Assembly: GCA_000004985.1 (NCBI GenBank)
Contig: GG738866.1
Length of the DNA: 64,000 nt
Source: Naegleria gruberi
Lineage: Eukaryota
Reading direction: 5' to 3' (one strand)
The position numbers and the translations under genes were made by a program. The notes under the pieces were generated by a model. That model did no database searches, was not told the DNA's origin, and saw only the letters and a program-made list of their open reading frames with translations. Numbering within the stretch: the stretch's first letter is position 1; each line of letters opens with the position of its first letter. This document shows, one piece after another, positions 13,449 through 33,417 of this stretch.

Positions 13449-16400
13449 ATGCCTGAAATTCTTGGTAGCACCACTGCTTCAAAGCAAGTGCTTGGTTTAA
13501 ACATTTCTCTATTGGTATGTTTCGCTTACTTTCGTTTTATTTATCAGAATCAAATTATCTTCCAACATCTCATTCACTTCTTCACATTCGCATTCAACTC
13601 CAACAATACTCAATAGAAAGGTGGTACTATCAGTCAAACAATTGTAAGTATATTCTCCTCCTCATAAAAACTTATTCTAATCTCAACAAACTATTCTAAT
13701 CTCCTTTTTTATAAACAACACAATTCAATTAATGAACACAGGTTGGTGCCATTATCACTTCTCTAGTGATTGCCTCCACCGTCGCAACCATCGTTCTCGT
13801 AACCACTGGTATTGGTTACTCTCCACCAGTTGCAGAACTTGACGTTGCATCCACATTCAAACGTGTTCCAGTTACAATCGACGTTCTTCACAATGATCGT
13901 GATCCACGTGGTGGTAATTTGACACTCACTCAAATTGTTTCTCCCCCTTCATTTGGTACAGCTCGTATTTTGTCTCAATCAAAGATTGTTTATCAATCGA
14001 GAGGTGCCTTTATGGGTAATGATTCGTTTAGTTATGAAGTTACTAATGGTTATGCTACTGCTAATGCGACTGTCAGAGTGTCAGTTGTCAATAGACCACC
14101 ACAAGCTGTGCCAATTTATAAAAAGATTTCAAAGAATGCGAACAAGGCATTGATTGATATCTTTAATTATATTGGTGATTCAGATGAAAAGATTTTTGAC
14201 ATTGACAATGATGAATTATTGGCAGTTTCATTTGGTGATCAACAAATTATTAGTGGAAATAGTCATATTGTTGGTTCAATTCAAGTTGATCCATATAATG
14301 GTTATTTGTATACTCCTGTTCCTAATTTTAACGGTATTGAAATGTTTAATTATACCATAACTGATGGAAATGACACTGATTCTTCCACAGTGACAGTTGA
14401 AGTTGACAATGATGCTCCAACTGCTGTTGATGATTATTTCAGAACTCCAAAGTATTCTGGTATCAAACTCAATGTTTTAGCCAATGATTATGATATTAAC
14501 AATGATGAAGTTAACATTACAAATGCCATTGGTGCTGGTTACGGAGCTACTCAAGTGTCAGAAAAGTCAATTTATTATTATACATCATCTGTATTGAATA
14601 CCAAGTATACTGATACTTTCGAGTATAGTATTACTGATGGTCAAAAAGAGGCATCAGCTATTGTTTTCATTGAAGTTTACAATAGGTAAGTTTTTAACTA
14701 TTTTTTGTAATTTTATTTAAAACCCATATATAGTGAGCCAATTGTTTATTCTAAAGTTGTTCAAGTTGCCAAGTCAAGTTCTAACAACACTATTACTGTA
14801 GATTATAACGACCCAGATCGTAAGGATTTAGTCACCGTTTCAAGAATTACACCTGTCTTGTCATCACTCAATCCACCTGCCAAATTAATGTTAGCTAAAA
14901 CTTATGAACAAGTCAGATTTGAATGTTGTGATTGGATCAAGGTTGAAACTAACAATTACACCATTGTTTTTGCTCCAACTCCTGGAATTGTTTACACTCA
15001 AACACTTGACATTGTCATGTCAGATGGTGAAAGTGAAGGAAATGGTAGAATTACCATTCAAGTTGTTAATACTCCACCTGTTGCTGTTGATGATCATGCT
15101 GAATGTAACAAGAATCAACAAATTTATGTTAACGTTGCTGCTAATGACTATGATGTCAATGAAGGTGATACTGCTCTTATTCAATTGTCAAATGTCAATT
15201 GGAATTCCAATACTGAACAAGGTGGTTCCATCACTCGTATCAACTCTACTCATGTACTTTATATTCCAAAGAAGAATTTCTTAGGAACTGACATTGCTCA
15301 ATATGTCATTACTGATCAAAGCAAAGACCAAAATGGAAATCCAGATTCCACAAGTTATTCAACTGGTAAATTAATTGTTCAAGTTGTTAATAATCCACCT
15401 ACTCCTGCTGATGATGAATTCACTATTTCTAAGGGTATTTCATCTGTTTTGAATGTTTTAGATAATGATTCTGATCCAAATGATGGATATGGATCTGTTT
15501 CTGTAATTAATTCTGTTAGTACAAGTTCTATTAAGAATATTTTGGCTAGTATTGTTAAGGGTTCTAAGGATATTCTTGAATATCTTGCTGTCAATGAAGA
15601 ATATGTTGATTTCTTGACATATGACGTTACTGATGCTGATGGTATGACATCTACTTATAAGGCAAATGTCAAACTTAATGTTGTCAATGATGCTCCTGTT
15701 GCTGAAAATGATGTCTATGAAACCAAGTGGAATAGATCTGTCTCTTGTTCTGTCAAGGATAATGACAAGGATATTAATGGTGACTTGTCAAAGTCAACAA
15801 TTTCAATTTCTAAAAATCCAACTCATGGTTCTGTTCAAGTTATTGGTGATTTGGTTACTTACACTCCTTACAATGGATTTGTTGGTTCTGATTCCTTCCA
15901 ATATACTCTTAATGATGGTAGCTCTGCAAATGCCGTGTCAAATGCTGCAACTGTCACTGTCAATGTCATTAACAATGCACCTGTCACTCAACAAGATACT
16001 GCCACCACTCACTGGAGAAACACAGATGGTGTCTTTATCAATCCATTATTAAATGACAGTGATCCAGACAATGATGAAATTGTTCTTTCCAGAACTAGCT
16101 CAACAGATGGCACTTCCTCATTGGTTTCTACCACCTTCCTCAAATTTATTCCAAATCAATCAACTCCTTCCACTGGTGATAAACAAGTTTCTTATACAGT
16201 TTCAGATTGGAATAAGGAAAGTGATGGAAAGATTATTGTAACCATTACAAATACTAAACCAATTGCAAGTGATGATCAATATACACTTCACTGGGCTGCT
16301 TCTGCAACTAATTTGAATGTTTTGGAGAATGATGCTGATCCAGATAGTGATCCAATTAGTTTGGGAAATGTCAAGGGTTCAACAGCAGCTGTCAAGAATG

Positions 16401-19400
16401 GAAATTCTGTCAGTTATACTCCAAAGAAGGATGGTAAGCAAGATACTTTCCAATATTCTGCATTTGATAGAGTTGATTACTCTACTGATGCAACTGTCAC
16501 TGTCAGTTTCACAAATAATGACAAGCCAGTTGCTTCTGACGTTTCCACTACTCTTCACTGGAGAGTTTTTGCTTCTCAATCCAATCAACAAGATTTCACA
16601 GTTTATTCCAAACAAACTGATTTCGATGGTGATAGTTTAACCCTATCTGTCACTGAAACTGCCAACTGTGCCAAGACAACTGACAGCATTGCCAAAGTCA
16701 GAGTTAAAGGTCCAAGCAACCAAGTTGGTACCTATTCCTGCTCATTCTCTGTTTCTGATGGCTTAGACACTTCTGGCATTAAAACAGCAAGTGTCAATGT
16801 CTATAATAATGCTCCAACATGTTCTGACATTGTCGTTGCTTTTAATCCACAATTTGTTGAAAGTGGTCAAACTTATTTATTGGGATCTTCTGTTTCTGAT
16901 GCTGATTCTAATGATTTCCCATTCCTTGCCCCAGTTGATCCAGCAGGTACCATTCAAACAGGTGACATTTTCAGAGTGGACTTGTCAGATGCCAAGAAAC
17001 TTTATTTTAAACCTAATACAAATACTGGTGACAGAAATTATCGTTATAAGGTCAGTGATGGAATTTCCAAATCTGCTGAATGTAACTTTAAGATTATTGT
17101 AAACTCTTTGGATTCTGGTGATTACAATCAAGCGTATGATGTTCATTGGAATTCAACAAATTTCCAAGTTCCAATTTTGGCGCCATTTGTTGGTAAGAGT
17201 ATTACTATAAAGAGTAAAAAGACAAATCCATCACAAGGACAAGCAACTGTTGATGCTGATAATCAAAAGGTTTATTTCACTCCTGCAAGAAAGTTGTACG
17301 TTGATAGTTTTGTAGTGGTTGTGACAGATGGCACTTTTGATAATGATGTGACAGTTACATTGTCAACATATAATACTAATCCAACTGCTTCTGTTCCAAC
17401 ACAAACTATGAATTGGGGAACTTCCAAGACCATCAATCTTTTACAAAATTATGCTGACAAGGATATGACAGATGGTTTCGAATCGATTGGTAAAATTAGT
17501 TCAGTTTCTTCTGCTGTTAAGGGAACTGTTTCACTTTCTGGTAATAACGCCATTTACACTGCTCCAGATCTTTACATTGGAAGTGATTCATTTACTGCAA
17601 CTGCCACTGATGGACTTGCCACTGTCACTTTTACTGTCAATATTAATTTAATTAATTCTGCTCCTATTGTTACTAATAAGGATATTTCAATCCATTGGTC
17701 TAAACATGCCGCTGGATATGCTATTGATTTGTCAACTGGTTCTTCAGATCCTGAAAATAATCCATTGACATTTGCTGTCAGCTCTGCAAGTATTTCACCA
17801 TCAAGTGCTGGAACAGTGACATTTAGTTCACCATCCAGTGGTGTTGTAAAGGCTGGCTCTTCTGTCTATCTTGGTAAATTCACATTCTCCTTCTCTGCAA
17901 GTGACAGATTAATTTCAACTCCTGGTTCTGTAGCTGTCACTGTAATTAATGACATGGCCACACCAATTGCTGATTCTGCTAATGTCCATTGGAGACAAAC
18001 TGGTGTAGAATTGAATCCTATCACTAAATATGAACCTACTTTGAAAGATACAGATGGTGATAGTTTGACAATTAGTGCTGTCAAAGCTCAGAAAGGAAGT
18101 GTCACAATTCACACATCAAAGACTGCCATTGTTTACAATGCTCCTTCAAATGCCATTGGACAAGATGTTGTTACTTATAGATTCACTGATGGTGCTCAAT
18201 CCCTTGAAGATTCCAGAACTGTCGTAAATGTCAATTTATATAACAATGCCCCTTCAGCTGTTGCTCAATCAGCTTCAACTAAATGGCATTTACCTGTCCA
18301 AGTTCCATTGACAAGTGCTTGTACAGATACAGATAGTTGGGATTCTAACTTTGTTACATTCAATGGTGCTGTTTCCAATATTATTGGTGGTTCAGTTTCA
18401 GTTTCTAATAGAATCGTCACCTTTACTCCATCCTTAACTCTTGCTCAATACACCAAATCAGGAGATGTTTACACTGGTACTGCCTCTTTCAATTTCCAAT
18501 GTACTGATGGTTTGGCAACAGCTGTCAACCCAGGTGTCGCAACCATCACTGTCACTAATAATGCTCCAACTGGAACAGGCAAATCTGTCACAATTCAAAG
18601 AGATTATACAAGAACTTCATATGATTTTGCATGGACAGACATGGCTACTTACTCAGATATTGATGGAAATTCTGTTTCCTTAATTAAATTCTCATCATCT
18701 GATTCAGCAATTTCAATTTCTACAATTGGAAATACTATTAGATTGACAACTCCAAGAGATGTCAGAGGTGTCAAGATAATTTCATTCAAATTATTTGATG
18801 GACTTCATGAAAGTACTAACGAATTGAAATTTACTGTTGAATTCCTTAATACTGCTCCAGTTTGTAAAGCTGCATCAGTGTCACTTGCCAAGAGACAATC
18901 ATATGACCTGTCACAATTATTCTCAGCAACTGATGTCAATAATGATGTATTGAGACATACTTTGAGTGGTGCTGTTCCAGCTGAATTTGGTTCAACTTCT
19001 GGAACTGTTTTCACAAGTGCTGCCAGTAGAAGTGGTGTGACAAGTGTCAGTTATACCACAACTGATGGACAAGATACAAGCTCACCTTGTGTAATTACCA
19101 TTACTATTACCAATAATGCACCAATCGCTCAAGACGCTGGTTACAGTTTCAAACCAGATCCTGCAAACTTGATTCACACTTTCACATACACTGCTACTGA
19201 TCCTGATGGTGACAGTTTGACATATTCTTCATCCAGTAATAATTGTGTTTCTGGTGCTTTGGCTACTACTCTTTCTATTTCATCATCTGGTGTTATCACT
19301 TTCAATAGAAAATCATCAGCTGTTGCTGGAGTTTGTACCATGTCAGTAACCGTAGTTGACAATAACAATCCAAGTGCTTCTGACACTGCAACTGTTACAT

Positions 19401-20699
19401 TTACCATCACTGCTACTCCACCAACTGCCAGAGATGATAGATTCCAAATTAATCAAGGTCAAACTATCAGAATTTTCACAAGTCAAATTTTGGCAAATGA
19501 CAATGACGAATATGGTTCAGCAACTTCCTTGACATTTGTTTCTTTCGAATGTCCAGCTGGTTACTGCCACAGTACTCCTAGATTAGTCACTTACAATGGT
19601 CAACAAGCTATTGAACTCGACTCTGATCAAAAGACCTGTCAAGCTGACAAATTCAAATACACAATGCGTACTAATTTGGGAGCTGAACGTCAAGCAGATG
19701 TTTTCATTGAATTCAAGAATTGTTACTGTGCTGCCAAGATTGACTTTGTCTTTTTATACGATTCATCTGGTTCCATTGGTGGAACAAACTTTAACAAAAT
19801 GAGAGATTTAGGTAAACGAATTATTGGAAGAATGCAACTTGCTGAAGATGCCATTAAGGTTTCAATTGTAAGATTCCATTCATCAGGTGTTAGAGCATTG
19901 TCTTTAACTTCTAATGGTGCTACTGTTAATAATACTTTTACCTCCATGACTGTAAGTAGTTTTTTAATAATTTTGTAAAGTATTTAATAATTTAATTTAA
20001 CAATACTAGTATGATGCTGGAAATACTGCAACTATTGCTGGTATGAGAATGGCTGTTGATGCTTTGAGACCTGCTAATGGTGGTAGAGCTGATGCTGATA
20101 AGGTTATTTATGGTATGTTTTTTTATTTGAAAACTTTACAATAATTTACAATTTCTTCTTTTATAGTGCTCACTGATGGTCTCGGTAACGTACCATGTAG
20201 TTGTTCTCAATGTGAAACTGAATGGTCATCCACTCCAAGTGTCTATCCAAAAACAGTTCAACAAGACATTCTCAATACTCTCTCAGGAACTTCAAGAACC
20301 AATGCTCTCCGTAATATGTGTGCTTACCAATTCTCTGATTCATCTGTATTGAATGGAAAAACATGTTCCTATTGTAGTGGTGGTAATGCTGCCTATTGTT
20401 TACCATGTGCTGATGCTGTTCCAATTGCCAAGAAGATTAATAGTTGGAAACGTGATGCTAATGGAATTGTTCCAAATGATCCTGATAATCCATATAATGG
20501 TAATAATAGAGTTCAATGGAAGGTTGTTGCTATGGCTGTTGGTAATGCCATGACTGATGTTTGGGGAGCTAGACAAATTCAAGGTATGAATTATGATGCT
20601 AGTAGAGCAATTACAGTCTCTTGGACTGATTTGTCATCTACAATGAGTGAAATTGTCGATCAATCTTGTAATCAAGTCAATGTTGAAACTGCTCAATAA
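13449..20699 (+). CDS. Giant adhesin-like protein (about 2260 aa): N-terminal hydrophobic anchor, about 20 tandem 95-100-aa cadherin/VCBS-like repeats, C-terminal VWA domain and Cys-rich tail
   Basis: Exon structure: exon 13742-14685; intron 14686-14733 (GTAAGT..TAG, contains an in-frame stop); exon 14734-19951; intron 19952-20009; exon 20010-20112; intron 20113-20166 (GTATGT..TAG); exon 20167-20699. A tentative first exon 13449-13514 (MPEILGSTTASKQVLGLNISLL, donor GTATGT) is uncertain. Repeat motifs V.NNAP.A.DD…N.L.ND.D.DGD…YTP..F.G.D.F.Y…DG; VWA signature DFVFLYDSSGSIGG. Confidence 0.8.
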
Positions 20700-20775: not shown

Positions 20776-22287
20776 CTATTCAGATTTCCTCCTCTTTTGA
20801 AATTCCAAATAATAAGATTTTCCAGAATGCCAAATCTTGTTATCTTCCAAAGCTCTTTGAACTTGAAATTTATCCAATAATGATGATTCATCAAAATTTG
20901 AATTTCCCATTCGTTCTTTCAATATTGATTCCAATTTATCCTGGAAAAAGTATGCTCTCTTTTTAAAGAGCTTGACAAGTGTTGATTTGTGAATTAAAAA
21001 CTTTGGCAGATGAATATCTGAATAGAGAACATTGATAAATCGAGTGGAATTATCATTAATCTTATCGAATCGATAGAAAAAGAAACCATCATACCGTCCC
21101 ATATCCTTTGGCTCGTGTCCAAACTCTGCAAAATTACCACTGTGTCCAATAATGACATAACTATTAGCCAACTCGTCATGAATACTTGTGTGAACTTGAG
21201 TAATGTCTCTATTCTTAAATCCTGGTAAATTCAAATCCAAAACTCCAACGGAATAATTCATTCCAAGTGAATCTTTAGTTGCTTCCTTGTAATGAATTGT
21301 TCTAATGTCTATCATGTTATCTTTTCCTTCCTCTATGGCAGTGACATGTAAAAAGACTTTCCAAACATCTTCCAATGGATATGGAACGGTCATATTGAAC
21401 TTTGTTAGGTGCATTGCAGTATCGTCCTGGAATACATATTGAGTTTTAGAATAAAAGAATTGAATCGAGTTGGAATTTTTGGAATTTTTGATCATTTCCC
21501 AATCTGGTGAATCTTCCATTAAACTATATCCAAAATAAATATCCTTCTCTGTTATTTCATTAGAATTTAAATGACTAGGTTTAAATCTAAAGTCTACATT
21601 GTAACCTTTCGATGTATCTATTGCTATTTGACGAGTAAAGTTTTCACCTTGTTTCTTCAAGAATGAAAATAACAATTCTGATCTAGAAAACCTTGGAAAT
21701 TGATCACATTTCAAATCAATCTCAATAGAAAGTAGTATATTCCTAAATAAATTATCTGGATTCAACGTTTCGAATACTTGTTCAATTTGTCCAATCAGAA
21801 ATTCAGCTTCTCCAAGAGAATTTGCATTAAACTGAACCGTCACAGATGATCTTCTTTTCAATTGAATTATTCCTGTTGTGGAAGAATAGGATTGACTTCC
21901 TACACTGAAATAGGGTTCAATTTTTTCATCCCAAATTGATAAAACTTCTCTTTTAGAAGATGACAAGTTTAATTCCATATCACTTCCGTTTCGAATGTAA
22001 GTATTCATGATTTGATGAGCTCTTTCGAAAGCCTTTTCACAACTTTTCATTAAATTTTCTACTTGATTCTTTTGGTTTGATTCCGAAGGTAGTTTCGAAT
22101 ATTCATTCCGATAAACTTCTACATCATTTACGAACAATAACGGCTCTTCATTTGATGCTACGGTTTTTAAATAATGAAGAAATAAATCCCTTGCTTCACT
22201 ATTTTCCATCACTTCATCATAGGTTACCACAAATTTACGAGCATCAAATCGTTTAGTGTCATCTTTCAACATTAGTTTTTTAAACAT
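20776..22287 (-). CDS. RGS (regulator of G-protein signalling) domain protein (about 503 aa from the AAAAAAATG start; the ORF extends to 22344)
   Basis: N-terminal region SEARDLFLHYLKTVASNEEPLLFVNDVEVYRNEY matches the RGS box pattern; long single-exon ORF. Confidence 0.6.
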   Translation of the reverse strand: MFKKLMLKDDTKRFDARKFVVTYDEVMENSEARDLFLHYLKTVASNEEPLLFVNDVEVYRNEYSKLPSESNQKNQVENLMKSCEKAFERAHQIMNTYIRNGSDMELNLSSSKREVLSIWDEKIEPYFSVGSQSYSSTTGIIQLKRRSSVTVQFNANSLGEAEFLIGQIEQVFETLNPDNLFRNILLSIEIDLKCDQFPRFSRSELLFSFLKKQGENFTRQIAIDTSKGYNVDFRFKPSHLNSNEITEKDIYFGYSLMEDSPDWEMIKNSKNSNSIQFFYSKTQYVFQDDTAMHLTKFNMTVPYPLEDVWKVFLHVTAIEEGKDNMIDIRTIHYKEATKDSLGMNYSVGVLDLNLPGFKNRDITQVHTSIHDELANSYVIIGHSGNFAEFGHEPKDMGRYDGFFFYRFDKINDNSTRFINVLYSDIHLPKFLIHKSTLVKLFKKRAYFFQDKLESILKERMGNSNFDESSLLDKFQVQRALEDNKIWHSGKSYYLEFQKRRKSE

Positions 22288-22352
22288 TTTTTTCTGAAAC
22301 CAATAAGAAAACTTTGAGAGATTTGAAAACAACTGTAGTGGCAATATCAGTT

Positions 22353-25300
22353 TTATCTAATATACATGTTTGCTTTTGTAACTCCATAATCTGGTACTGG
22401 GAATGTATAAGCCTTGAAAATGTTTGTAACACCACCTACTATACTACCACAATAACTTGTAATGGCTCCACTCTTTGTAGTTGGTCCTCCCAATGAACAT
22501 GTATCAGTACCATAATTACAAGGGCTACCATCTTCAACACGATACAATTCAGTGTCTAATAAGGATGATGCCAATGTTTTACAAACAAAAGAACCACCTG
22601 TTGATAAGGTAGAAATTGAGGCAAGACCATAGTATCCAGTTGGATCTCTCCAAAGAATATCAGAGGAAACATTTCTCAATGCTCCCCACTTGTCATCAGA
22701 GACTGAATAACCATATACATCAACCTTGACATAATCATTCGTTGCTAATGGAATGGCTATATTATTAGTGGTGGTTCTTGATGAAACCAAAGCCCAACCA
22801 CCTCCAAGGTACTCCATATCACAATAAACCTTAAACTTATTCATTGTATCTAATGGTTTCACCCAATAAACACCACTGGCAGCAGATGGAATCAAATCCT
22901 TGTATTCACGACATGACCTCAACACGTTACCAATAAAATAGGCACTATCAAGTGTTTGAAGAGCAATAACAACGCCTGTTGTAGTTGGCACGTATGGCTT
23001 AGTTTCATTGGCGAAATAAATTGAATGAATACTGATTGGAACATTAGGATTAGTTTTTAAAAAGTTTTGAGGTAAATCAACGGAGAATAAATTGAGCTTA
23101 TTGTTTAGAATCAATGTAGAGGTAATACCCATAGTTGGCATTGGTAATTTTTGATTGATATCTTCCCATACTAGAGGATTGCTCTTGAGAGCTCTAGAAA
23201 TTCCCTTCAATTCAGAATAAGTTGGACTAAAACCACCAGTCATGTACAAGTAAGTGTCATCACTAAACAGATTACTTTCTGTGTAAGGGTGAGGAAGAAC
23301 TCTATAACTATTTTGCCAAATCATCTCAGAAGCAGAGGCATACAAAATGTCAGAATTGAGAGCAAGTCTACCAACTCTACCCCCAAAAAGATAAATATTG
23401 TCGCCAATGACTTGAGCAACACCATTATAGATTGCTCTTGGTAGAACCTTTGAAACCTCTTCCCAAATCAATAGGTCGTTTAAATGACATCTCATCACTT
23501 TATATGTTGGGATTGTTGTTCCTCTATCATCTGTTAACCCACCAAAAATGTACAAGTACTCGTCAACAATTGCTAACATTCCTGAGGCAACAGGGTAGGG
23601 TAAAGTTTGATTAAAAATCTGAATAGAGTCAACTGATGTTTTAAGAGCAATTCTATTCGAAACAACATTATTCACAACACCACCAAAGTAAAAAACAGCA
23701 CCGTCCTTTGTAAAGTCGTGGGTATTACAGAAAGAGAAGGCAGCAAACATTTCGTAGGTTGTTTTTGCAATATTCACACTCATATCTGATTTACCAACCA
23801 TAATCATGTCCATATTATCATTAGAAAGGGAGATGAAGTTATTCTCAGAATAGACAATTCTAAGAGAAGACAAATCAAATACTGGAAACACCTTCTCGTA
23901 AGGAACAATGTAAGCGATTGAAAAGATGAATGCCTTAGTATAATAGTTTCTAAACCCAGAATATCCACTGCTAAAGAATGGAACTGAAAATTTACCACCA
24001 GCATAAAATCCCATCTCTCTGTCTTTGTTGTAAGCCAAGATGGCTGATTCTTTCATGATGTGAATTTCATGGACATAATCAAAGCCTGGAGGAGAAAGCA
24101 GAGAATCTGGTGCATACTGTGTTCCGCACCCTTTTCTGCCATAACTTGACCAACTGTAATCGTACCAATAATTAAATCTAGCAAGGCCAAGATTGCAAAC
24201 ATTGTCATCATTTCTACCCCATGCCCATATTGTTTGATCATCTGCCAAGGCAAATGCTTGTTCATTCTTGTGGAATAGCTTGACAATCTTTCTCGACCCA
24301 ATGTTGGTGGTAGAAATTGCAGATGGATTTATGGTTGAAGAACTGACGTCTGTTCCCAACTGACCATTATAATTATATCCCCAACCAAATACACGTCCAG
24401 TATCTAACAGAGCAAGAGTGGATGAATCACCACATTGAAAGTCGATAATACTTGAAGAAAAGTACACAAAAAAGTCAGAGGTAAAATTTGTTGGAGTGCA
24501 CTGAGAAATAACAAAGGTTCCGTTGACCTTTCCCAAGTTATCGTAGGTATATCTGACGTACGAAGAAGTTGGAATACTGTAACTGTCTATTCCTTCACTA
24601 TTCCTTCTTTGCCCCTATTTATAATTGTAAATTAACACATCAATTTGATAACATACCCAATAATACATTACACCTGAAGTGGTTCTTCCAACAGCATGGC
24701 TTTTGCCAAAACAAATCTTGGTAAACTTTAAGGTGTTAGAAATTTTAACAGGTGAAGAAGAAACTGCAGTAGAGCCAGTTCCTAGTTGACATTCAGATCC
24801 TCTTCCCCAACTAAAAGCATAGCCATCACTGTCAAGGTACACTGAATTATATGGTCCAGCATTGATAAAAGTAATGGTATTGGAATGACTCTTGATCTTG
24901 ACAGGATAGGTAACAACACCTTGATAACCAGCTCCAACTTCTCCATTGGCGTTTGTTCCCTGAAATTTCAATGAATAAATATATATAAAACAAAAATGTA
25001 AAAAGGCATGTAAGAACATAAAAACAAAGAATACAAACCCATGAATAGATAGCCCTATTGGTCAATATGAGTACATGTTGTTGACCACATGCAACTTGCT
25101 TAATGTACTCATCAGAGTCGAGAGGTAAATCAACTCGTCCAGGAGCTGGAGTAGCAGGAATTCTTCCCAACGTTGTGGTTCCCCAAGAATAAAGCACTCT
25201 GGTGGCTGGATCTAGGTGGATTCCAAAAGCATCTCCAGTGCACATGAACATTCTCTCCCTTGGTGGTTCAACCTTGGGAGATCTGAAATAAATTGATGTC

Positions 25301-26019
25301 GAATTGGCATTAAAGTAGGTCAGCTTTCCACTCACAAGTGGTGTTGTGAATGGTATTGGATTAATGGTCGAGTTCATCGTCTTCTCTAAACCATTTAATA
25401 AGGATACGGCAGATTTGTACTTTCCATTCAAGTAAAAATCCATTGCAACGTTAACAATAACATTATCAGATTTAGTAACTGTCAAGGTTTGAAGCTGTTG
25501 TAAATTTCTAGTCATGGCCCTTGTGATTCCCGCCTGACTGACAAAAGTTAAGGGTGTCTGATATGTGGAGTTTGAATTTGTTGAAACATTTGAATTTAGT
25601 GCAATAGAGGCGGTGGATATGGCTCTGTATTGTGCTCTAGCAAGTTGTTGTTGTTTCTGGACAGTGTCTGTGTAATTCTGAAGCAGTGCCCTTCTCTGCG
25701 CTGCATAGTCTCTAGCAATCCTTCTATCCCTAAGGAATTGAATATATTCCATTGAGGTGGAAGCAGAATAAACTACACCACTCTCAAAAGAGAGCATTAA
25801 AAATACAAATAGAATACATGTGAAAATATAAACCAATGAACGAATAGTGTATCGTTCTTGTTGTCGGTAAGGGAGCATGTTGGAAACGTTTAAGGTCTTT
25901 GAATTCATTTTAGATAACAATCCTTGCTCACTAATGAAGGATGTTGTTCTTCCACAGTAGCAGTTACCAGTAGTAACAAGAGATTTATCGCCTTTCAGTG
26001 GAAGCTGATCTTTAAACAT
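22353..26019 (-). CDS. Type-II membrane protein (about 1180 aa) with RCC1-like repeats, Kelch repeats and a C-terminal fibrinogen-related domain
   Basis: Three exons: 26019-25039, 24959-24657, 24614-22353. Introns 25038-24960 (79 bp, GTTTGT..CAG) and 24656-24615 (42 bp, GTATGT..TAG) restore the frame. TM helix SLVYIFTCILFVFLMLSF near the N-terminus; RCC1 motifs (WG.N..GQLG); Kelch-like LYIFGG and IYLFGG; fibrinogen-like VYWVKP…FKVYCDMEYLGGGWALVSSR. Confidence 0.7.
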
Positions 26020-26865
26020 TTTTTTAATAGGAAGTGGTGTGATTTCTTCATTAGATAACGTTGCTTGTGCTAACGCACAAATTAAGGCGCTCTATTTAGA
26101 ATGTGGGTACTCTTTTTTTCTCAGTAATTGAGAGCCGTAATCAACAGTGCAAACACCAACTGCCATAATGGCTTGTAATGTCGCGCTCAATGGTCGAGTA
26201 TTGTTGTATACATTCAGCATCATCTGAGAACAATAAATTAATATAATATAAAAATAATAATAACAATTACAGGTATTGAGGGAGCCATTAGTATCTCAAT
26301 TATCATTTTCCATTTCATGAAGTTTCACATTATTGTACATTGATAAGTGAGAGTTTACAGTTTGTAAGGAACATGGATTGATCAAAGAATCTTGTGTTCA
26401 GAGTTAAGAACTAGGGATATCGACATAATGGTTTTGCAATACTCTCTCAATGAGCAACACATGTTTGTATTTTCTTATTCTCCACAGGTGAATGTTCCTA
26501 GCAGCCTTGTTCGTCAAATTGGACAATATCAATTATCTCTCGCCCTTATTATTAGACTATAAATTAATTTTTTGAAAATTGTGTTTGAAAAACCGTAAAG
26601 TCAGTTTGATGAACTAAATATTTCTAATAAGCACTTGGAACTTAAGCGTCATAGATCAAAATGACACTCAAACACAAAATTGAAGTAATTTGTCACTGAT
26701 ACTTTGTGACTGGTGATGGGTTGGTTCGGATTAGTTGCATCTTTCGATATGCGCATAACCTATGCTAACTATTTTCTTCCAAACATGCTCATAGTTAAAC
26801 ATGAAGAAACGATTTCATCACATGCAGATGATGGAAGTTATTCGAAATCTAAACAACAAAAAAAT

Positions 26866-29800
26866 ATGAAGTTCGAAAGGTGTAACATGTTGGGACACGC
26901 AAGTCTCGTGTTATTTCATCTCATCACCTTGTTACTACTACTTTCGAATAGTAACAACAAGTTTATTCACGGAGCAGTGTCATGGAAACAACCAGACTAT
27001 CGAATCACCACAGTCAATCCTCTACAAGTATCAACAAATCCTGAAGGTAACAAACTATACGATTTCAAAACAAATGCTCCCTATGCTATTGATTTTGACG
27101 CACAAGATAACATGTACATTCTCGATTATTCAAAGTGGGTCCTAAAGGTCAATACAAGTAGTGGTACTATAAAAACATTAATGGGAGTTGCTGTAGGTAC
27201 AGAATCTGATGTGGATGGTGTTGATGGAACAACAGTACCTGTTGGATACTTTAAAGACATGTCAGTCAATCCAAAGAGTGGTGAAGTTTATCTTGTGGGA
27301 AACATGAAATTGAAGAAAATTAACACCAATGGTAAAATTTCCAACTATAATGTCAATAATTTTGATGTTACCAATATCTATGGAGATGGTGGAATGGCAA
27401 TCAATTCAAAAGTTTCGGATAATGTTGAAAGTGTTACAGTCAATTCGAAAGAAGAAATTATCTTTTCTGATAAGAACAGAATAAGAAAGATTTTTAATAA
27501 TGGCACCATAACCACAGTAGCTGGTACTGGTTCTCCTAGTGACTCACTCATGAACACTCCAAAGGGTGTATGCACCGATTTATCAAATAACATTATCTTT
27601 ATTGATTGGGGAACGAATAGAATTAAGAAAATTTCAGCAATTGATGGATCAATTTCTGTAGTGGCTGGTAAACTTAATCAAGTCGGTACTTTTCCTGCAG
27701 ATAAATCACTTGCCAATAACACAGCCATTACTCCAGTGAGCATTGCAGTGCATCCTGTGAGTGGTGAACTGTATTTTGCAACAATGTATACTATTTCAAA
27801 AATTGGCTCTGATGGATTGATTTACAGAATTGCAGGAAATGGTTCAATTGGAGTGGATAATACTGTACAAGCAGCCACTAATGCCATGCTTTCTTCAATT
27901 ATTCACATTTCTATTGGAAAGAATTCAGTCTTGTACATGATTGATGGTTTTCGTGTGAGACAAATTTCATCCAATGTTATCACCACACTATTAACTGAGA
28001 GTTCAACTTTCCCTCCTAAATTTGTCTATCATTACAACAGTTATGTTTACTATACAGTGTCATGTCAGATATTGAAATTCCCAGACAATAATCCTTCTGT
28101 TGTTACTACCATTCTTGGATTGAGAGGAACTTGTGTTCAATTTTTTGGTGTTAAGAGACAAGTTGATATGACTCAAAATTACCTCTCCTTTGATGCAATG
28201 ACAGCATTCACAATGTCAGCTTCAACAGGAAGAATGTACTTTTCAAATCCAAGAAGAATGTGGAACATTACAGATGGCTACATTTATCCAATGGTTTACA
28301 ATTATGGTGAGAATATTGATATTAAGGATGGTCTCATTGAAAATGACGCCTCGTCTTGCTTTGATAATTCTGGAAATTTAATTCTTGGAGATAATTTTAG
28401 ATTGAGAAAGTTGAATACAACCTCTCATATAGTCAACTCAATTATTGGTAATGAAAGTCCAATGGTGCCATTTGCTTGTACTGTTGCTCCTAATGGAGAC
28501 ATTTACTTTAAAGATAATCAAGCCATTAAGAAATTGGATGCTTCAACCGGTTTGACAACAACTTTAGATACTGTACTAGCAGATCACAGATCCCGCAATT
28601 ACAAAATCAAGTTATTGCCTTCTGGTGCTTTGATTTATACCGATTTACAATATGTCATTGCTTATTACAACAATCAAAAGACTACTATTGCTGGAAGTGT
28701 AGCCACTGGTCCATTTTCTGGAGAGGGTGGAAGGGCTGTTGATGTTGTTCAAAATGCTTTCCTTGTTGGTTTGACTGCTAACAGTAAGGGTGAAATCTTC
28801 TACTCTGACGAGACTGCCTATATCAGAAAATTAACACCATACTGTAGTGATACTTCAACCTATTTGGATTCAACGGGTACTAAATGTTTGGTTTCCTCAT
28901 GTTTTGGAGTTGATTATAATATTAATTCAGTTTGTTCAGGACATGGTAAATGTGTTTCGAATGATGTTTGTAAATGTAATGATGGCTACTCTGGATTAAA
29001 TTGTGAAAAGTTCACATGTTTTGGCTTGAACAATACAGATCCAAAGGTATGCTCAGGAAATGGAACTTGTGTCGATATTGATTACTGTTCATGTACTTCT
29101 GGTTATCAACCAGAATGTAAAGGTTACGTTTGTTTCGGTTATCCAATGGACAATTTTAAGGTCTGCTCCTCTCATGGAAAATGTATTGGCAATGATAAGT
29201 GTGAATGCGACCCAACTTACAATGGAACCAAGTGTGAAAATTACTATTGCTTTGGTTTATCTGCATCTGATCCTAATGTTTGTAATGGAAATGGAAAGTG
29301 TATAGAAACTGACACTTGTTCTTGCTCATTTGGCTTCCAACCAAATTGTTATGCTCACAAATGTTCAGGAAAGGTCTACAATGACTCATCAGTTTGTTCC
29401 TCAAGTGGTAAATGTGTTGCCGAAAATACATGCATATGTACTAATGGTACCAATGGACCTAATTGTGAATTCCTCTCACTCTTATTGGATATCCAAGGAA
29501 GACCAACTCTCAAAACTGTTGCGAGAATATTCACATTGCTAGGTAATCCTGTCGATAATTGTGCCACTATTTTTGCAAGCAAAGAATTGTCCTATCTTGG
29601 AAATGATCCAATTTGTAAATTTTCAGCTAGTGGTCTGGAAATTATTTTGGGATCTGGTTTCTCAATTGATAATGGAACTTTCTTGCCAACTCAATCATTT
29701 GACGGATGGAAGTATGATTTTAGAGTACAGGCTGGATCTGTTTGTGGTAGCTATGCTCAAACTTCCTTAACTCTCGATTTTAGTTCTCAAACAAACTCTT

Positions 29801-32800
29801 TGCAAAATTTGAATTCGGACACCATTTTGAGAATATCTGAAACTGATTATTCTCAATCATTTGGAAGAAGTATTTCATGGACAGGTCCTTCTGATTTAGT
29901 TCCTCTCGTTTCTCCAAATCAAAAGGTTGTGATCATTCCTAAAGGTTATTGGAAACCAGGAAATAATCTCCCTGTTACAGTCTCCACCAAGACTTCTCTG
30001 TGTGGAACCAATTCGAATAGTAGAACATTTACATTCAAGACTGATTCTACCGCTCCATCCATTGACATCATGACAGACACTCCTTCTGGTAAATTGAATT
30101 GTGTGGGTTATGATTGTTTATTTGAATTTTCTCTTTCACCTGCAGGATCATACTCTGCACAGATCAAATTTGATGGAGATTATTCATTGATTACCTCAAT
30201 TTCTTCAATTCCAAATTTACAAATTGCCAGATTATCAAACTATTATGACAGCACCACTTACTTGGGTGTTAAATATTATGGAACGGTCAATTTACAATTG
30301 CTGTTCAATTCAGTTATTTATTCTTCTACATATCCTATGCAGTATTTGGCATATGAAAGCTCTCAATTATTTATTAATAACTTGAACAGAGGTTTTAGAA
30401 AGGATCAATCTGAATTGACCTTTAGTTTGGTTTCTCAAAATCCGTTACTTCTCACGGTCAATCCAGGAGCTCTTCCAATCACTTACAATTGGACCATCTC
30501 AAGCGGAAACAAAATTATTGGACCATTCTATACCAATTCAATCAGTATTCCTAATCCAGGTGTTGGAAATTATTCTCTTTCACTTCAGGTCAATAACAAT
30601 GATGAATTTAGTGAAACCATTACTGGTACCTTCTCTGTTTTTGACACAGTTGGCGCAATTCCAGATGTTTCAGTAGATAGCTTTACCAATCCATATCCTT
30701 TTATCAAGACTCTTGATTTGACAGCTACTGTAAACTCTACAACATCTGTCAGTCAAATTTATTGGAATGTAATTTCAGGTTCCTTCTACAACTCACCTGT
30801 TCTATCAAACTTTGCATTTTCCCAAAATAATATCAAGACAAGTCTATCCATTCCTGTTTCCTATCTCAAGGAGGGTTCTAATTACGTTTTCGAACTCAGA
30901 GTGACCAACTCTGTTGGAACTAATATTCAAAGATTCAATGTAAAGATGGATTACAATCCTCGTTTCACATGTGATTATTTCACCAGCTACAATTCTTCTC
31001 AATTGAAGGTATATGAATCCAAATTGATAATTTCATGTAGTTCTTTTGAAAATAATATGGCATCATATGTCGTTGATTTGTTTGATGGAGATGTAAAGTT
31101 AATGACCTTGTCAAATACTGCTAAGAGTAGTGTTATTGCTAGATTACCTTATTCTTTGAATGCATTATCATTGAATGTGAGAGGAATTAATAGAAATGGA
31201 TCTTACAGAAAGGTTGTAAAATCAATTACTGGTCCTTTCCTTAATTTCCCTTCTTCTGATCTTTCTGCTAGAGTTTCGTATGTTTCCCAGCAATGGACAA
31301 GTGTGAAAGCTGAGAATATCAAGATGGATACTGCTTCCTCTATTTTATCATTATTGACCTATCTTCAAAATGGTAAACAAACATTCGATGATTTATCAGG
31401 ATTGAGTGATTCATCTAAGCAAACCTTGACAACTGTCATGGTTGAAATGATCTCTGCTTTAAAGTCTATTACAACAATTGGTTATCGTGCTGATGATAAG
31501 ATTTCTGCTGTTCTCCTCTCACCTACCCTTAGAGTTGTCAAACTGGTAAAGACCATCCTGCCAACTGTCTACTCCAATCAAAAGTCCGATATTCAATACT
31601 TGACTAGTTTTATTGTAAAGGGTGTTGAATCTGTGACTTCTTATTATTCAGCTAATATGGTCAGAGCATTGGTTGATGGATTAACCTTCAATGAAACTGT
31701 CTCCCTTGTACAAAATGCTTACTCCTCAGCCGCCACTAGTGGATTATTGGGTCAATTGACCAGATTACAACTCATTCTCAAGCCAGATTTTTCACCATTG
31801 AATTCTGTTTCCTATCAATCACCTCAGGAAATAAGTGGTAAAACAATCACATTGGGAGCTTCCATCTCATTCACATTCCCTTCAAACTTTTACTCACAAA
31901 TTTCCTCATCGGTTCCATTTAGTTTGATCAGCTCTCAGGAACAATCCAATTCCGATGCTTCATCAGCTACTGTAAGCATTTCTCTTTTCAAATCCGATGG
32001 TTCAGCATTTAAGGTTCAAGGATTGACAAGCTTTATTGAAATTGTCTTTGCTGACTTGGTTTTCAAGAGCGAAAATGTTAGTTGTGTCTATTTTGATGAA
32101 GTTTCGAATGCTTGGAGTAGGGATGGATTGATTACTACTCTTGTCAAGAAACAAACAGGTGGATTTAATGTCAAATGTGAAACTAATCACTTGACAGCTT
32201 TCTCTGTTGTTGTCAATGATGCAATCACACCAGTTCAACCAACTCAATCGCCAGCAAAGAGTGGCACCACTACTACAACTACTGACAATACATTGGCTAT
32301 TGTTCTGGGTGTGGTCATTCCTTCTGTTGTGATTATTGCAGCAATTGTCACAGTCATCATTGTTGTAGCAATTGTTTGCATGAGAAAGAAGAAGAAAGGA
32401 CAGTCAACAAATCAACCTAAGCTTACCAAACTTGACAGTGTCTATGAACAACCTAACATATCTGCTTATGAACATTCAAAACCTCATGACATTTTGACAG
32501 ATACTGAACTTTCTGTCATGTCTGATTTCCCATCAAACAATAGCATGTTAATCAAACCATTAATGAGTGTTTACACAAGCACTGGTTCAACATCAAGCAC
32601 TTCTTCTAAATTTGATCCAATGTCCAGATATAAGAATCTTGTTAGAATTGGTCAAGGCGGTTTTGGAAGTGTTTTCAAAGCAGAAGATGCCAAGTGTGGA
32701 AATCAACTCAAAGCCCTCAAAGTTATCAAATATTCATCAGTGGAAGAATTGAACAACATTTTGAAGGAAGGAAATCGTTTAATGAACATTTCACATCCAT

Positions 32801-33417
32801 ACATTCTCCATGTGAATGATGTCTTGATTGACTCTGATCAAATCCTATGTATTGATATGGACTATTATGAAAAGGGAGATTTAAATCAATTTGTAAAGGT
32901 TGGTTCTGAATGCCCTGAAAATATTCTCAAACAAATTCTCTATCAAATGTGTAATGCTCTCGATTATGTTCACAACACTTTACAAATTGTTCACAGAGAT
33001 ATCAAACCATCGAATATTTTCATTAAGGAAATGTCTCAAGATAGTATTCATTTGATTTTAGCAGATTTTGGATTGGCTAGACAAACTCAAGGAAGTGTCA
33101 TGTTTTCCTATGCAGGAACTCCATTGTTCATGTCAACTGAGTTAGCTCTCGGTGGTAAATATACTGCCAATACTGATATTTATTCATTGGGTGTGACATT
33201 GTATCAAATTATTACAAAGGATGTAGAAACTTCATTGTCTCACATATCGCTCACTATGGATACAGCCGAATTTGAAAAGACTATTAGAAATAAGATGAAA
33301 CAAGCCAACCCTGCACTTTCGGATGAATTATTGGACATTATTGTGAGCATGTTGAAGAGAGATTATGCCACAAGACCTTATCCAAAGGATATTCTCTCCA
33401 ATTCCTACTTCCAATAA
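26866..33417 (+). CDS. Receptor-like Ser/Thr protein kinase (about 2180 aa): signal peptide, NHL-repeat beta-propeller, tenascin-type EGF repeats, long ectodomain ending in a GPS-like motif, single TM, cytoplasmic kinase
   Basis: Single ORF (track 26713-33417; likely start is the AAAAATATG at 26866, giving the signal peptide MKFERCNMLGHASLVLFHLITLLLLLS). EGF-like Cys spacing CSGHGKCVSNDVCKCNDGYSGLNCE repeated about 6 times; C.YFDE..N.WSRDG…VKCETNHLTAFSVV just before the TM (VVIPSVVIIAAIVTVIIVVAIV); kinase motifs GQGGFGSVF, HRDIKPSN, DFGLAR. Confidence 0.85.
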   Translation: MKFERCNMLGHASLVLFHLITLLLLLSNSNNKFIHGAVSWKQPDYRITTVNPLQVSTNPEGNKLYDFKTNAPYAIDFDAQDNMYILDYSKWVLKVNTSSGTIKTLMGVAVGTESDVDGVDGTTVPVGYFKDMSVNPKSGEVYLVGNMKLKKINTNGKISNYNVNNFDVTNIYGDGGMAINSKVSDNVESVTVNSKEEIIFSDKNRIRKIFNNGTITTVAGTGSPSDSLMNTPKGVCTDLSNNIIFIDWGTNRIKKISAIDGSISVVAGKLNQVGTFPADKSLANNTAITPVSIAVHPVSGELYFATMYTISKIGSDGLIYRIAGNGSIGVDNTVQAATNAMLSSIIHISIGKNSVLYMIDGFRVRQISSNVITTLLTESSTFPPKFVYHYNSYVYYTVSCQILKFPDNNPSVVTTILGLRGTCVQFFGVKRQVDMTQNYLSFDAMTAFTMSASTGRMYFSNPRRMWNITDGYIYPMVYNYGENIDIKDGLIENDASSCFDNSGNLILGDNFRLRKLNTTSHIVNSIIGNESPMVPFACTVAPNGDIYFKDNQAIKKLDASTGLTTTLDTVLADHRSRNYKIKLLPSGALIYTDLQYVIAYYNNQKTTIAGSVATGPFSGEGGRAVDVVQNAFLVGLTANSKGEIFYSDETAYIRKLTPYCSDTSTYLDSTGTKCLVSSCFGVDYNINSVCSGHGKCVSNDVCKCNDGYSGLNCEKFTCFGLNNTDPKVCSGNGTCVDIDYCSCTSGYQPECKGYVCFGYPMDNFKVCSSHGKCIGNDKCECDPTYNGTKCENYYCFGLSASDPNVCNGNGKCIETDTCSCSFGFQPNCYAHKCSGKVYNDSSVCSSSGKCVAENTCICTNGTNGPNCEFLSLLLDIQGRPTLKTVARIFTLLGNPVDNCATIFASKELSYLGNDPICKFSASGLEIILGSGFSIDNGTFLPTQSFDGWKYDFRVQAGSVCGSYAQTSLTLDFSSQTNSLQNLNSDTILRISETDYSQSFGRSISWTGPSDLVPLVSPNQKVVIIPKGYWKPGNNLPVTVSTKTSLCGTNSNSRTFTFKTDSTAPSIDIMTDTPSGKLNCVGYDCLFEFSLSPAGSYSAQIKFDGDYSLITSISSIPNLQIARLSNYYDSTTYLGVKYYGTVNLQLLFNSVIYSSTYPMQYLAYESSQLFINNLNRGFRKDQSELTFSLVSQNPLLLTVNPGALPITYNWTISSGNKIIGPFYTNSISIPNPGVGNYSLSLQVNNNDEFSETITGTFSVFDTVGAIPDVSVDSFTNPYPFIKTLDLTATVNSTTSVSQIYWNVISGSFYNSPVLSNFAFSQNNIKTSLSIPVSYLKEGSNYVFELRVTNSVGTNIQRFNVKMDYNPRFTCDYFTSYNSSQLKVYESKLIISCSSFENNMASYVVDLFDGDVKLMTLSNTAKSSVIARLPYSLNALSLNVRGINRNGSYRKVVKSITGPFLNFPSSDLSARVSYVSQQWTSVKAENIKMDTASSILSLLTYLQNGKQTFDDLSGLSDSSKQTLTTVMVEMISALKSITTIGYRADDKISAVLLSPTLRVVKLVKTILPTVYSNQKSDIQYLTSFIVKGVESVTSYYSANMVRALVDGLTFNETVSLVQNAYSSAATSGLLGQLTRLQLILKPDFSPLNSVSYQSPQEISGKTITLGASISFTFPSNFYSQISSSVPFSLISSQEQSNSDASSATVSISLFKSDGSAFKVQGLTSFIEIVFADLVFKSENVSCVYFDEVSNAWSRDGLITTLVKKQTGGFNVKCETNHLTAFSVVVNDAITPVQPTQSPAKSGTTTTTTDNTLAIVLGVVIPSVVIIAAIVTVIIVVAIVCMRKKKKGQSTNQPKLTKLDSVYEQPNISAYEHSKPHDILTDTELSVMSDFPSNNSMLIKPLMSVYTSTGSTSSTSSKFDPMSRYKNLVRIGQGGFGSVFKAEDAKCGNQLKALKVIKYSSVEELNNILKEGNRLMNISHPYILHVNDVLIDSDQILCIDMDYYEKGDLNQFVKVGSECPENILKQILYQMCNALDYVHNTLQIVHRDIKPSNIFIKEMSQDSIHLILADFGLARQTQGSVMFSYAGTPLFMSTELALGGKYTANTDIYSLGVTLYQIITKDVETSLSHISLTMDTAEFEKTIRNKMKQANPALSDELLDIIVSMLKRDYATRPYPKDILSNSYFQ

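Follow-up and report, generated by a model that had tools for sequence, protein, structure and literature searches.

A receptor kinase of Naegleria gruberi with a polycystin-type GAIN domain in front of its single transmembrane helix

Introduction

Can the GAIN domain, the autoproteolytic juxtamembrane module of adhesion G-protein-coupled receptors (adhesion GPCRs) and polycystins, be coupled to a single membrane-spanning helix and a protein kinase? The question is raised by a gene on contig GG738866.1 of the Naegleria gruberi assembly GCA_000004985.1, which lies within a stretch of 64,000 nucleotides (the window) and encodes the protein deposited as UniProt D2VE44. An earlier account of this DNA, made from the letters alone and termed here the sequence-only reading, had noticed a motif resembling the GPCR proteolysis site (GPS) next to the transmembrane helix of a putative receptor kinase, and had called the combination an unusual receptor design. 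The analysis presented here leads to the conclusion that D2VE44 is a type-I single-pass receptor Ser/Thr kinase, the ectodomain of which has a complete GAIN domain at its membrane-proximal end, and that this domain is of the polycystin-1 type, with a one-disulfide GPS.

In the literature, GAIN domains are treated as confined to adhesion GPCRs and PKD1-like proteins (PMC11697300). The module composed of GAIN and a seven-transmembrane (7TM) domain is regarded as a holozoan invention, and GAIN domains of non-holozoans are merely said to be 'encoded in other genes' (PMC12716839). Arac et al. reported GAIN domains in Dictyostelium and Tetrahymena; the word 'kinase' is absent from the main text of that report (PMC3321182). 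In the literature searched, neither an account of a GAIN-kinase receptor nor a citation of D2VE44 or its paralogs was found, in agreement with the view that the design is unusual.

Results

A GAIN domain adjoins the transmembrane helix of D2VE44

The GPS motif of D2VE44 comprises residues 1739–1781 (32080..32208, + strand) instead of the range of about 1750–1820 initially proposed for it. Its sequence was recovered verbatim as quoted earlier, C1740-VYFDEVSNAW-SRDGLITTLVKKQTGGFNVK-C1771-ETNHL|TAFSVV (residues 1740–1782). T1777 lies just 33 residues ahead of the transmembrane helix, which starts at residue 1810, so that the GAIN domain adjoins the first membrane helix and the motif indeed stands just before the only one. 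On three different fragments of the protein the Pfam profile PF01825 (GPS) is matched over profile positions 2–44 of 45 with 24.1–25.3 bits (curated cut-off 22.5; E 2e-5 to 5e-5). The profile search proposed in the sequence-only reading, for which the lack of a significant GPS/GAIN hit had been named as the refuting outcome, therefore returned a match above the curated cut-off. The same profile is matched independently by 21 of 24 aligned relatives, with a best E of 1.3e-9.

The structure of the juxtamembrane region, for which an AlphaFold model had likewise been suggested, was predicted with AlphaFold2 (AF2) for residues 1365–1790 on the basis of an alignment of 24 GPS-containing relatives from Naegleria and metagenomes. 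This model is confident, with a mean predicted local distance difference test score (pLDDT) of 83.9 and a predicted template-modelling score of 0.78; a single-sequence AF2 run on residues 1440–1800 gave a pLDDT of 36.7. In model numbering, a β-sandwich (1–90) is followed by a bundle of about nine helices (102–274) and a β-subdomain of 11 strands (278–419). The helical bundle represents GAIN subdomain A (residues ~1466–1638; 31261..31779, + strand; pLDDT mostly 75–96), and the 11-strand β-sandwich represents subdomain B (residues ~1642–1783; 31789..32214, + strand). The GPS contributes the last five strands of the model. Here N-H-L-T (residues 1774–1777) forms a four-residue turn between the last two strands (403–409 and 414–419), which contains the predicted autoproteolysis site H1775-L1776 / T1777 (32188..32196, + strand). 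The turn geometry at the cleavage site in crystal structures of GAIN domains is the same (PMC3321182).

Comparison of the model with the Protein Data Bank (PDB) by Foldseek ranked the GAIN+HormR structure of BAI3 first (4dlo; E 7e-9, probability 1.0) and the CADH9-GAIN structure of CELSR1 second (8vy2; E 4e-6), and GAIN domains were the top PDB matches by two independent methods. When a profile of the family was compared with PDB sequences, the GAIN domain of ADGRG1 came first and in register at HL|T, with a weak score (E 0.052, not significant). Judged by the model, a whole two-subdomain GAIN domain of about 320 residues precedes the transmembrane helix of D2VE44.

Several results weigh against this assignment and would be compatible with a chance resemblance, in which the pattern C...W...C..HLT arose in a Ser/Thr-rich stalk that holds no GAIN domain. 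The PF01825 score exceeds the cut-off by only about 3 bits, and the profile is reported neither in the scan of the whole 2183-residue protein nor in the precomputed Pfam list of D2VE44, which probably explains the bare label 'protein kinase' of the public entry and why the architecture has gone unremarked. When PDB chains were searched by phmmer with the GAIN region, nothing significant emerged, the matches being noise from the transmembrane region (dystroglycan) or irrelevant. Global TM-scores to GAIN structures are low (0.29–0.34), due to the larger subdomain A and the extra N-terminal domain of the model. Moreover, two of the four canonical cysteines and the first tryptophan of the GPS are missing. 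Against a chance resemblance stand the confident model with its full two-subdomain GAIN topology and the profile matches that the relatives obtain on their own. In addition, the missing cysteine pair is the very pair that is also missing in cleaved polycystin-1, and this optional pair covaries perfectly among the relatives (see below). A chance origin of the motif is thus effectively refuted and appears highly improbable.

The GPS is of the one-disulfide type and retains the cleavage residues

The GPS of D2VE44 contains C1740, W1750 and C1771, and the first canonical tryptophan is replaced by phenylalanine. In adhesion GPCRs, the canonical GPS has four cysteines engaged in two disulfides; in latrophilin-1 (CL1) these are C801-C832, 31 residues apart, and C820-C834, with cleavage at H836-L837|T838 (PMC3321182). 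The spacing between C1740 and C1771 is also 31 residues, and L1755 and T1773 stand where latrophilin-1 has C820 and C834. In polycystin-1 (PC1), which is likewise cut at HL|T, there is a single disulfide, C3015-C3043 (PMC4810088). D2VE44 therefore fits the polycystin-type Cys/Trp framework and not the four-cysteine consensus of adhesion GPCRs. As in PC1, its one-disulfide GPS carries a cysteine at P6 and a threonine at P4 of the cleavage site (C-x-T-x-H-L|T-A-F in D2VE44). Human PC1 C3043 is presumed here to be P6, on the assumption that cleavage occurs between L3048 and T3049.

Among the 24 aligned sequences, the optional cysteine pair is either complete ('GC ... CxC', 3/24) or entirely absent ('G[LIVM] ... 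CxT', 21/24), and a single member of the pair is never found. Such all-or-none behavior is what a conserved disulfide geometry predicts, and hence provides independent evidence of a GAIN-like fold. In this protist-like set, the one-disulfide polycystin-type GPS appears to be the common form.

The cleavage triad is largely preserved in the alignment: the histidine is invariant in all 24 sequences and the leucine is present in at least 90%, followed by threonine or serine. In the four full-length relatives of D2VE44, which share only 27–30% identity, the GPS residues C, Y, D, W, G, C, H, L and F are invariant, and invariant columns are about four-fold enriched in the GPS (11/43 versus 30/383; Fisher p = 0.001). 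Retention of H, L and T/S at this level of overall identity argues for selection on the catalytic triad as well as on the fold, which supports cleavage but not gating.

A small family of GAIN-kinase receptors in Naegleria

Relatives were collected by scanning 1.84 billion representative proteins exhaustively with HMMER/phmmer, for which residues 870–1800 served as query. Four full-length relatives were obtained that align over the whole stalk and GAIN domain: D2VMZ5, D2VGC0 and D2VPM5 of N. gruberi and FDP41_013523 / A0A6A5C4P6, the ortholog of N. fowleri. All four are composed of NHL repeats, an EGF array, the stalk, a GPS, one transmembrane helix and a kinase, and the N. gruberi paralogs are located on other scaffolds. 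D2VE44 is thus a member of a small Naegleria family, with four paralogs in N. gruberi (D2VE44 included) and at least one ortholog in N. fowleri, and the survey for GPS-kinase fusions that the sequence-only reading had recommended yielded the whole architecture in three further N. gruberi proteins and in one of N. fowleri. A further 17 matches cover the GPS region only and lack the kinase HRD motif; many of them are metagenomic fragments, either single-pass or multi-pass. A scan of metagenomes with the single protein found no relative. Within the reach of single-sequence HMMER, the GAIN-kinase combination appears restricted to Naegleria.

The catalytic motifs of the kinase are intact in D2VE44, the N. 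fowleri ortholog, D2VMZ5 and D2VPM5. In the public models of D2VMZ5 and D2VPM5, the kinase sequence is cut short directly behind GTP[LI]FM and gives way to unrelated residues; the 3' ends of these two models are probably mis-annotated by read-through of an unannotated intron.

These truncated ends show that Naegleria gene models are imperfect, and it could be asked whether D2VE44 is itself an artefact of gene modelling or assembly, by which an adhesion gene was fused to a neighboring kinase gene. Direct support for such a fusion was not found. The raw sequence of the window contains one stop-free open reading frame of 6.7 kb (26713..33417, + strand) that spans ectodomain, transmembrane helix and kinase, and the same domain order recurs in the N. 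fowleri ortholog as well as in the three N. gruberi paralogs, which are encoded on other scaffolds. A fusion artefact is therefore effectively excluded, its probability being even smaller than that of a chance GPS motif.

Translation from the ATG at 26866 gives 2183 amino acids, the numbering of which is used here, so that the coding sequence extends over 26866..33417 (+ strand), stop codon included. The product is the same protein as XP_002677474.1 / EFC44730.1 / UniProt D2VE44 (100% identity, 100% query coverage), an entry of 2210 residues that is annotated merely as 'protein kinase [Naegleria gruberi]'; this identity marks the window as nuclear DNA of N. gruberi. The length of the public model places its start at the in-frame ATG 26785, which is situated in the same open reading frame 81 nt (27 codons) upstream of 26866, and the gene accordingly consists of one exon, as the proposed single exon of about 6.5 kb had implied. 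The hydrophobic core of the signal peptide follows directly after ATG 26866 (or after ATG 26887); a start downstream of 26785 is therefore no less plausible than the public one. A G+C content of 27–39% per 2-kb bin and the neighboring genes are typical of the N. gruberi genome.

Domain organization from the signal peptide to the kinase

From the N-terminus, D2VE44 consists of a signal peptide, an NHL-repeat region, five EGF modules, a β-rich stalk of about 500 residues, an FN3-like domain, the GAIN domain, a Thr-rich linker of 26 residues, one transmembrane helix and the kinase. Hydropathy analysis yields only two segments, a signal-like one at residues 8–26 and one transmembrane segment with its peak at 1821–1839. 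In the whole-protein Pfam scan, matches were obtained to Pkinase (residues 1922–2182, 163.9 bits), EGF_2 (five), EGF_Teneurin (four) and TEN_NHL.

The signal peptide region (residues 1 to ~36; 26866..26973, + strand) has its hydropathy peak in MLGHASLVLFHLITLLLLL, within the hydrophobic core of residues 8–26, which bears out the signal peptide that had been proposed. The following NHL-repeat β-propeller region (residues ~37–659; 26974..28842, + strand) is matched by PF25021 TEN_NHL with 49.8 bits in four stretches when residues 1–650 are scanned. With the full-length protein as query, the best database relatives are NHL-repeat proteins, mainly of bacteria, and the true paralogs are missed by that search; together with the TEN_NHL match, these relatives substantiate the NHL assignment. 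The EGF region (residues 660–868; 28843..29469, + strand) begins with the pair C660/C674, followed by 30 cysteines that form five 6-Cys units (residues 679–867), in line with the EGF_2 and EGF_Teneurin matches. The count is thus five modules instead of the six or so initially estimated.

The β-rich stalk (residues 869–1364; 29470..30957, + strand) is conserved in the family and aligns over its full length with the four relatives at 23–27% identity. Only sub-threshold PKD-, Ig- and FN3-like signals were obtained for it, namely K319L-like_PKD (E 0.0025), PKD_6, PKD and Ig_3. A REJ module as in polycystin-1 was considered for this region and found no support at the sequence level, with no REJ match on fragments, the whole protein, the four relatives or the five aligned stalks. 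Directly before the GAIN domain lies an FN3/Ig-like β-sandwich (residues 1365 to ~1455; 30958..31230, + strand), which corresponds to strands within model residues 4–90 and gives local FN3 matches in Foldseek. The part of the ectodomain between the EGF array and the membrane had been described as about 1000 residues rich in Ser and Thr. This is correct for the composition (23–25% Ser plus Thr) but not for the length, which is 930 residues, and the region is mostly folded, with true low complexity just in the linker 1783–1809.

The extracellular linker itself (residues 1784–1809; 32215..32292, + strand) contains 33% Thr and coincides with a fall of the pLDDT at the end of the model. It leads into the transmembrane helix (residues 1810–1838; 32293..32379, + strand), the sole strong hydropathy peak after the signal peptide (3.45), which is followed by the stop-transfer sequence RKKKK. 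The cytoplasmic juxtamembrane segment (residues 1839–1921; 32380..32628, + strand) is Ser-rich (19%) and gives no domain match. The Ser/Thr protein kinase domain (residues 1922–2183; 32629..33414, + strand) is matched by the full PF00069 profile (positions 1–263), and the motifs GQGGFG, ALKV, HRDIKPSN and DFG are all in place, giving the full catalytic set. With one hydropathy peak, the Pfam score and all kinase motifs, the cytoplasmic Ser/Thr kinase behind one transmembrane helix is confirmed. By its motifs the kinase is intact and predicted to be catalytically competent; its nearest solved structures are the kinases ULK3, NEK1 and STK24.

Comparison with polycystins, adhesion GPCRs and teneurins

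Like polycystin-1, PKD1-like proteins and sea-urchin REJ proteins, D2VE44 carries its GAIN domain directly before the first transmembrane helix. Subdomain A is enlarged as in PKD1, with about nine helices compared to up to eight in PKD1 models (PMC11697300), and, as in PC1, β-sandwich modules of FN3/PKD-like type are found just upstream of the GAIN domain. The large subdomain A in combination with the adjoining FN3-like domain is more polycystin-like than adhesion GPCR-like. In contrast to PC1, which has 11 transmembrane helices, a PLAT domain and a TRP-like channel part, D2VE44 has one transmembrane helix followed by a kinase, and its N-terminal head is built of NHL and EGF repeats. None of the profiles REJ, PKD, PLAT and PKD_channel reached threshold in the whole protein, its fragments or the stalk of the family. 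With no REJ or PLAT match and without the 11-helix region, D2VE44 is ruled out as a PKD1-like protein.

With adhesion GPCRs such as BAI3, CELSR1, ADGRG6 and CD97, D2VE44 shares a big modular adhesive N-terminus that includes EGF repeats, and a GAIN domain with HL|T; GAIN domains of adhesion GPCRs are also the best structural matches of the model. The strand following the predicted cleavage site, T-A-F-S-V-V, resembles the core TxFAVLM of the tethered agonist of adhesion GPCRs (PMC12716839). In the whole protein, however, no Pfam match to 7tm_2 or any other 7TM family was obtained, and one hydrophobic segment follows the GPS. Without a 7TM domain, a pocket for the tethered agonist and coupling to G proteins are not to be expected. 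D2VE44 further differs in having two GPS cysteines instead of four, a Ser/Thr kinase as output, and a heterolobosean host, whereas the GAIN/7TM module is assigned to Holozoa (PMC12716839). In view of the missing 7TM domain, D2VE44 is ruled out as an adhesion GPCR.

A likeness to teneurins exists at the level of repeat type only, the best Pfam models of the NHL and EGF regions being TEN_NHL, EGF_TEN and EGF_Teneurin. Teneurins are type-II membrane proteins with a YD shell and a toxin-like (Tox-GHH) C-terminus, and contain neither a GAIN domain nor a kinase. D2VE44 was rejected as a teneurin, since it starts with a signal peptide and ends in a kinase, and the whole-protein Pfam scan gave no match to YD, RHS or Tox. 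Other juxtamembrane modules that are autoproteolytic or force-sensitive belong to different folds, as is the case for SEA (MUC1-type mucins) and the Notch NRR, or are cytoplasmic like ZU5 (UNC5, PIDD). To our knowledge, none of SEA, NRR and ZU5 is fused to a kinase in the manner of D2VE44. In conclusion, the juxtamembrane module of D2VE44 is a member of the GAIN/GPS family and represents its polycystin-type variant, with a kinase output that is undescribed in the literature searched.

Naegleria relatives with other outputs

Several Naegleria proteins share with D2VE44 an NHL and/or EGF head and a GPS before the membrane, and none of them has a kinase. D2VFB9 (XP_002677176.1) of N. gruberi, 2103 residues long, consists of a long NHL array, a stalk, a GPS, seven hydrophobic segments and an RGS domain. 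Its GPS differs from that of D2VE44 in having four cysteines and the site C-A-C-N-H-T|T, and is matched by PF01825 with 23.1 bits; the block of seven segments has no match to a Pfam 7TM family. D2VFB9 thus shows a GAIN/GPS directly before a 7TM-type block in a heterolobosean, as opposed to the holozoan-only linkage described in the literature (PMC12716839).

In the remaining proteins, A0AA88KCU4 and A0AA88GDF9 of N. lovaniensis and FDP41_006543 of N. fowleri, the order is (NHL-)EGF-GPS and one transmembrane helix with a short tail behind it. A0AA88KCU4 and FDP41_006543 have the same two-cysteine GPS as D2VE44. One N. lovaniensis protein of the type NHL-EGF-GPS-one transmembrane helix, with a tail of 12 residues, is already named 'GAIN-B domain-containing protein'. 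As GAIN-B is annotated automatically in this relative, database records of D2VE44 may carry the same flag already.

Discussion

A proposed self-cleaving, force-released receptor kinase

The results raise the question of how a GAIN domain could act on a kinase through one helix. We favor a model in which D2VE44 is a type-I GAIN receptor kinase that cleaves itself at L1776|T1777, sheds its N-terminal fragment (NTF) under force and signals through clustering of its C-terminal fragments (CTFs), the kinases of which activate each other in trans; we consider this model slightly better than an even bet (about 0.55). In the endoplasmic reticulum, the GAIN domain would break its own chain at the bond that joins L1776 to T1777. 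The reaction would be an N-to-O acyl shift, for which T1777 serves as nucleophile and H1775 as base. The products would be an NTF of about 1740 residues, comprising NHL, EGF, stalk and GAIN regions and ending in ...CETNHL, and a membrane-bound CTF of 407 residues (1777–2183), comprising the last β-strand TAFSVVV, the Thr-rich linker, the transmembrane helix and the kinase. The predicted N-terminus of the CTF is TAFSVVVNDAITPV, and the predicted neo-N-terminal peptide is TAFSVVVNDAITPVQPTQSPAK. Both fragments would be held together by the TAFSVVV strand buried in the GAIN β-sandwich. Binding of the head to a surface, prey or matrix, followed by a pull from the cell, would extract the strand and shed the outer fragment. 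Since D2VE44 has no 7TM bundle for a tethered agonist, the signal must pass via a single helix. Most plausibly, once the bulky ectodomain is gone, the short CTFs would cluster and their kinase domains would trans-activate.

Such a GAIN domain would be a force-sensitive release module that is agnostic of its output, and this notion fits its occurrence before a kinase, a bare transmembrane anchor and a 7TM-RGS block in Naegleria. It can be extended to the tentative proposal that an ancient, output-independent GAIN domain predates 7TM coupling, and that in Naegleria the pull-off of the NTF may switch on a kinase without an agonist pocket.

Several points weigh against the model of force-gated shedding. 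While cleavage of D2VE44 and force-gated activation of its kinase are both what we infer from the features above, the step from shedding via clustering to trans-phosphorylation is one we infer purely by analogy with receptor kinases that have a truncated ectodomain. An intact motif does not guarantee cleavage, as some GAIN domains that carry one stay uncleaved, among them that of BAI3, which crystallized in uncleaved form (PMC3321182). Finally, the kinase of the paralog D2VGC0 is a predicted pseudokinase, in which the Gly-loop is deleted, HGN replaces HRD and the activation segment is shortened; kinase output is therefore not obligatory for the family.

These points lend weight to an alternative in which the GAIN domain is real but serves as a structural or maturation module. 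It would stay uncleaved, or its cleavage would be a constitutive checkpoint of folding and trafficking, for which a case has been made in polycystin-1; the kinase would be activated by ligand-induced dimerization through the NHL/EGF head, and release of the NTF would be idle. In addition to the uncleaved BAI3 domain, the trafficking of PC1, which is governed by GPS cleavage (PMC4810088), is in favor of such a role. The presence of the same NHL-EGF-GPS cassette on Naegleria proteins with a 12-residue tail and no signalling domain suits a generic stalk or shedding function better than a kinase switch, and the kinase-less relatives and the pseudokinase D2VGC0 fit this alternative at least as well as the force-gated model. 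On the other hand, the selection on the triad deduced above, including the histidine invariant in all 24 sequences, speaks for cleavage, though not for gating. A structural or maturation role is a serious candidate, if one that we would not expect to prevail.

Implications for GAIN function

Work on GAIN domains has so far been framed almost wholly by adhesion GPCRs and polycystins, with the released strand viewed as a tethered agonist acting on a multi-pass domain. The conserved family described here, in which a polycystin-type GAIN domain stands before a single helix and an intact kinase, indicates that GAIN can serve an output of quite another kind, and this in a heterolobosean, a host very distant from animals. 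It bears on the role of GAIN autoproteolysis and NTF release beyond agonist exposure, and offers a simple system with one helix and a kinase as read-out. Considered alongside the NHL-GAIN-7TM-RGS paralog and the relatives that have a GPS and one transmembrane helix but no kinase, the family suggests that the ancestral GAIN domain was a generic juxtamembrane device for shedding or force sensing. If the force-gated model is true, D2VE44 would be the first GAIN-coupled kinase receptor and give direct access to 7TM-independent GAIN function. Moreover, an adhesion-type receptor-kinase family is flagged in Naegleria, including the pathogen N. fowleri.

Further features of the window

The window begins with two hexamer arrays, (AACCCA) x61 at 1–366 and (AAACCC) x64 at 1006–1388, with 97–98% matches and a run of N between them. 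The first 2 kb show a strong GC skew (-0.63), and the start of the window looks like a telomere-like scaffold end. An open reading frame of 1706 residues at 14858–19978 (+ strand) comprises 11 repeats of bacterial-type Ig (Big_9) and cadherin-like kind, as well as the beginning of a VWA domain, and represents an adhesin-like protein of bacterial-type repeats in a eukaryotic genome. Three adjacent open reading frames follow at 20776–26019 (- strand), encoding an RGS domain (20776–22344), RCC1 and Kelch repeats with a fibrinogen-C fragment (22353–24536), and an RCC1-like fragment (24847–26019), of which the second and third may belong to a single gene as separate exons. On the other side of the receptor kinase gene, an open reading frame of 1364 residues at 51657–55751 (- strand) encodes a receptor-type cyclase, in which two periplasmic-binding-protein/ANF-receptor-like domains precede an adenylate/guanylate cyclase catalytic domain.

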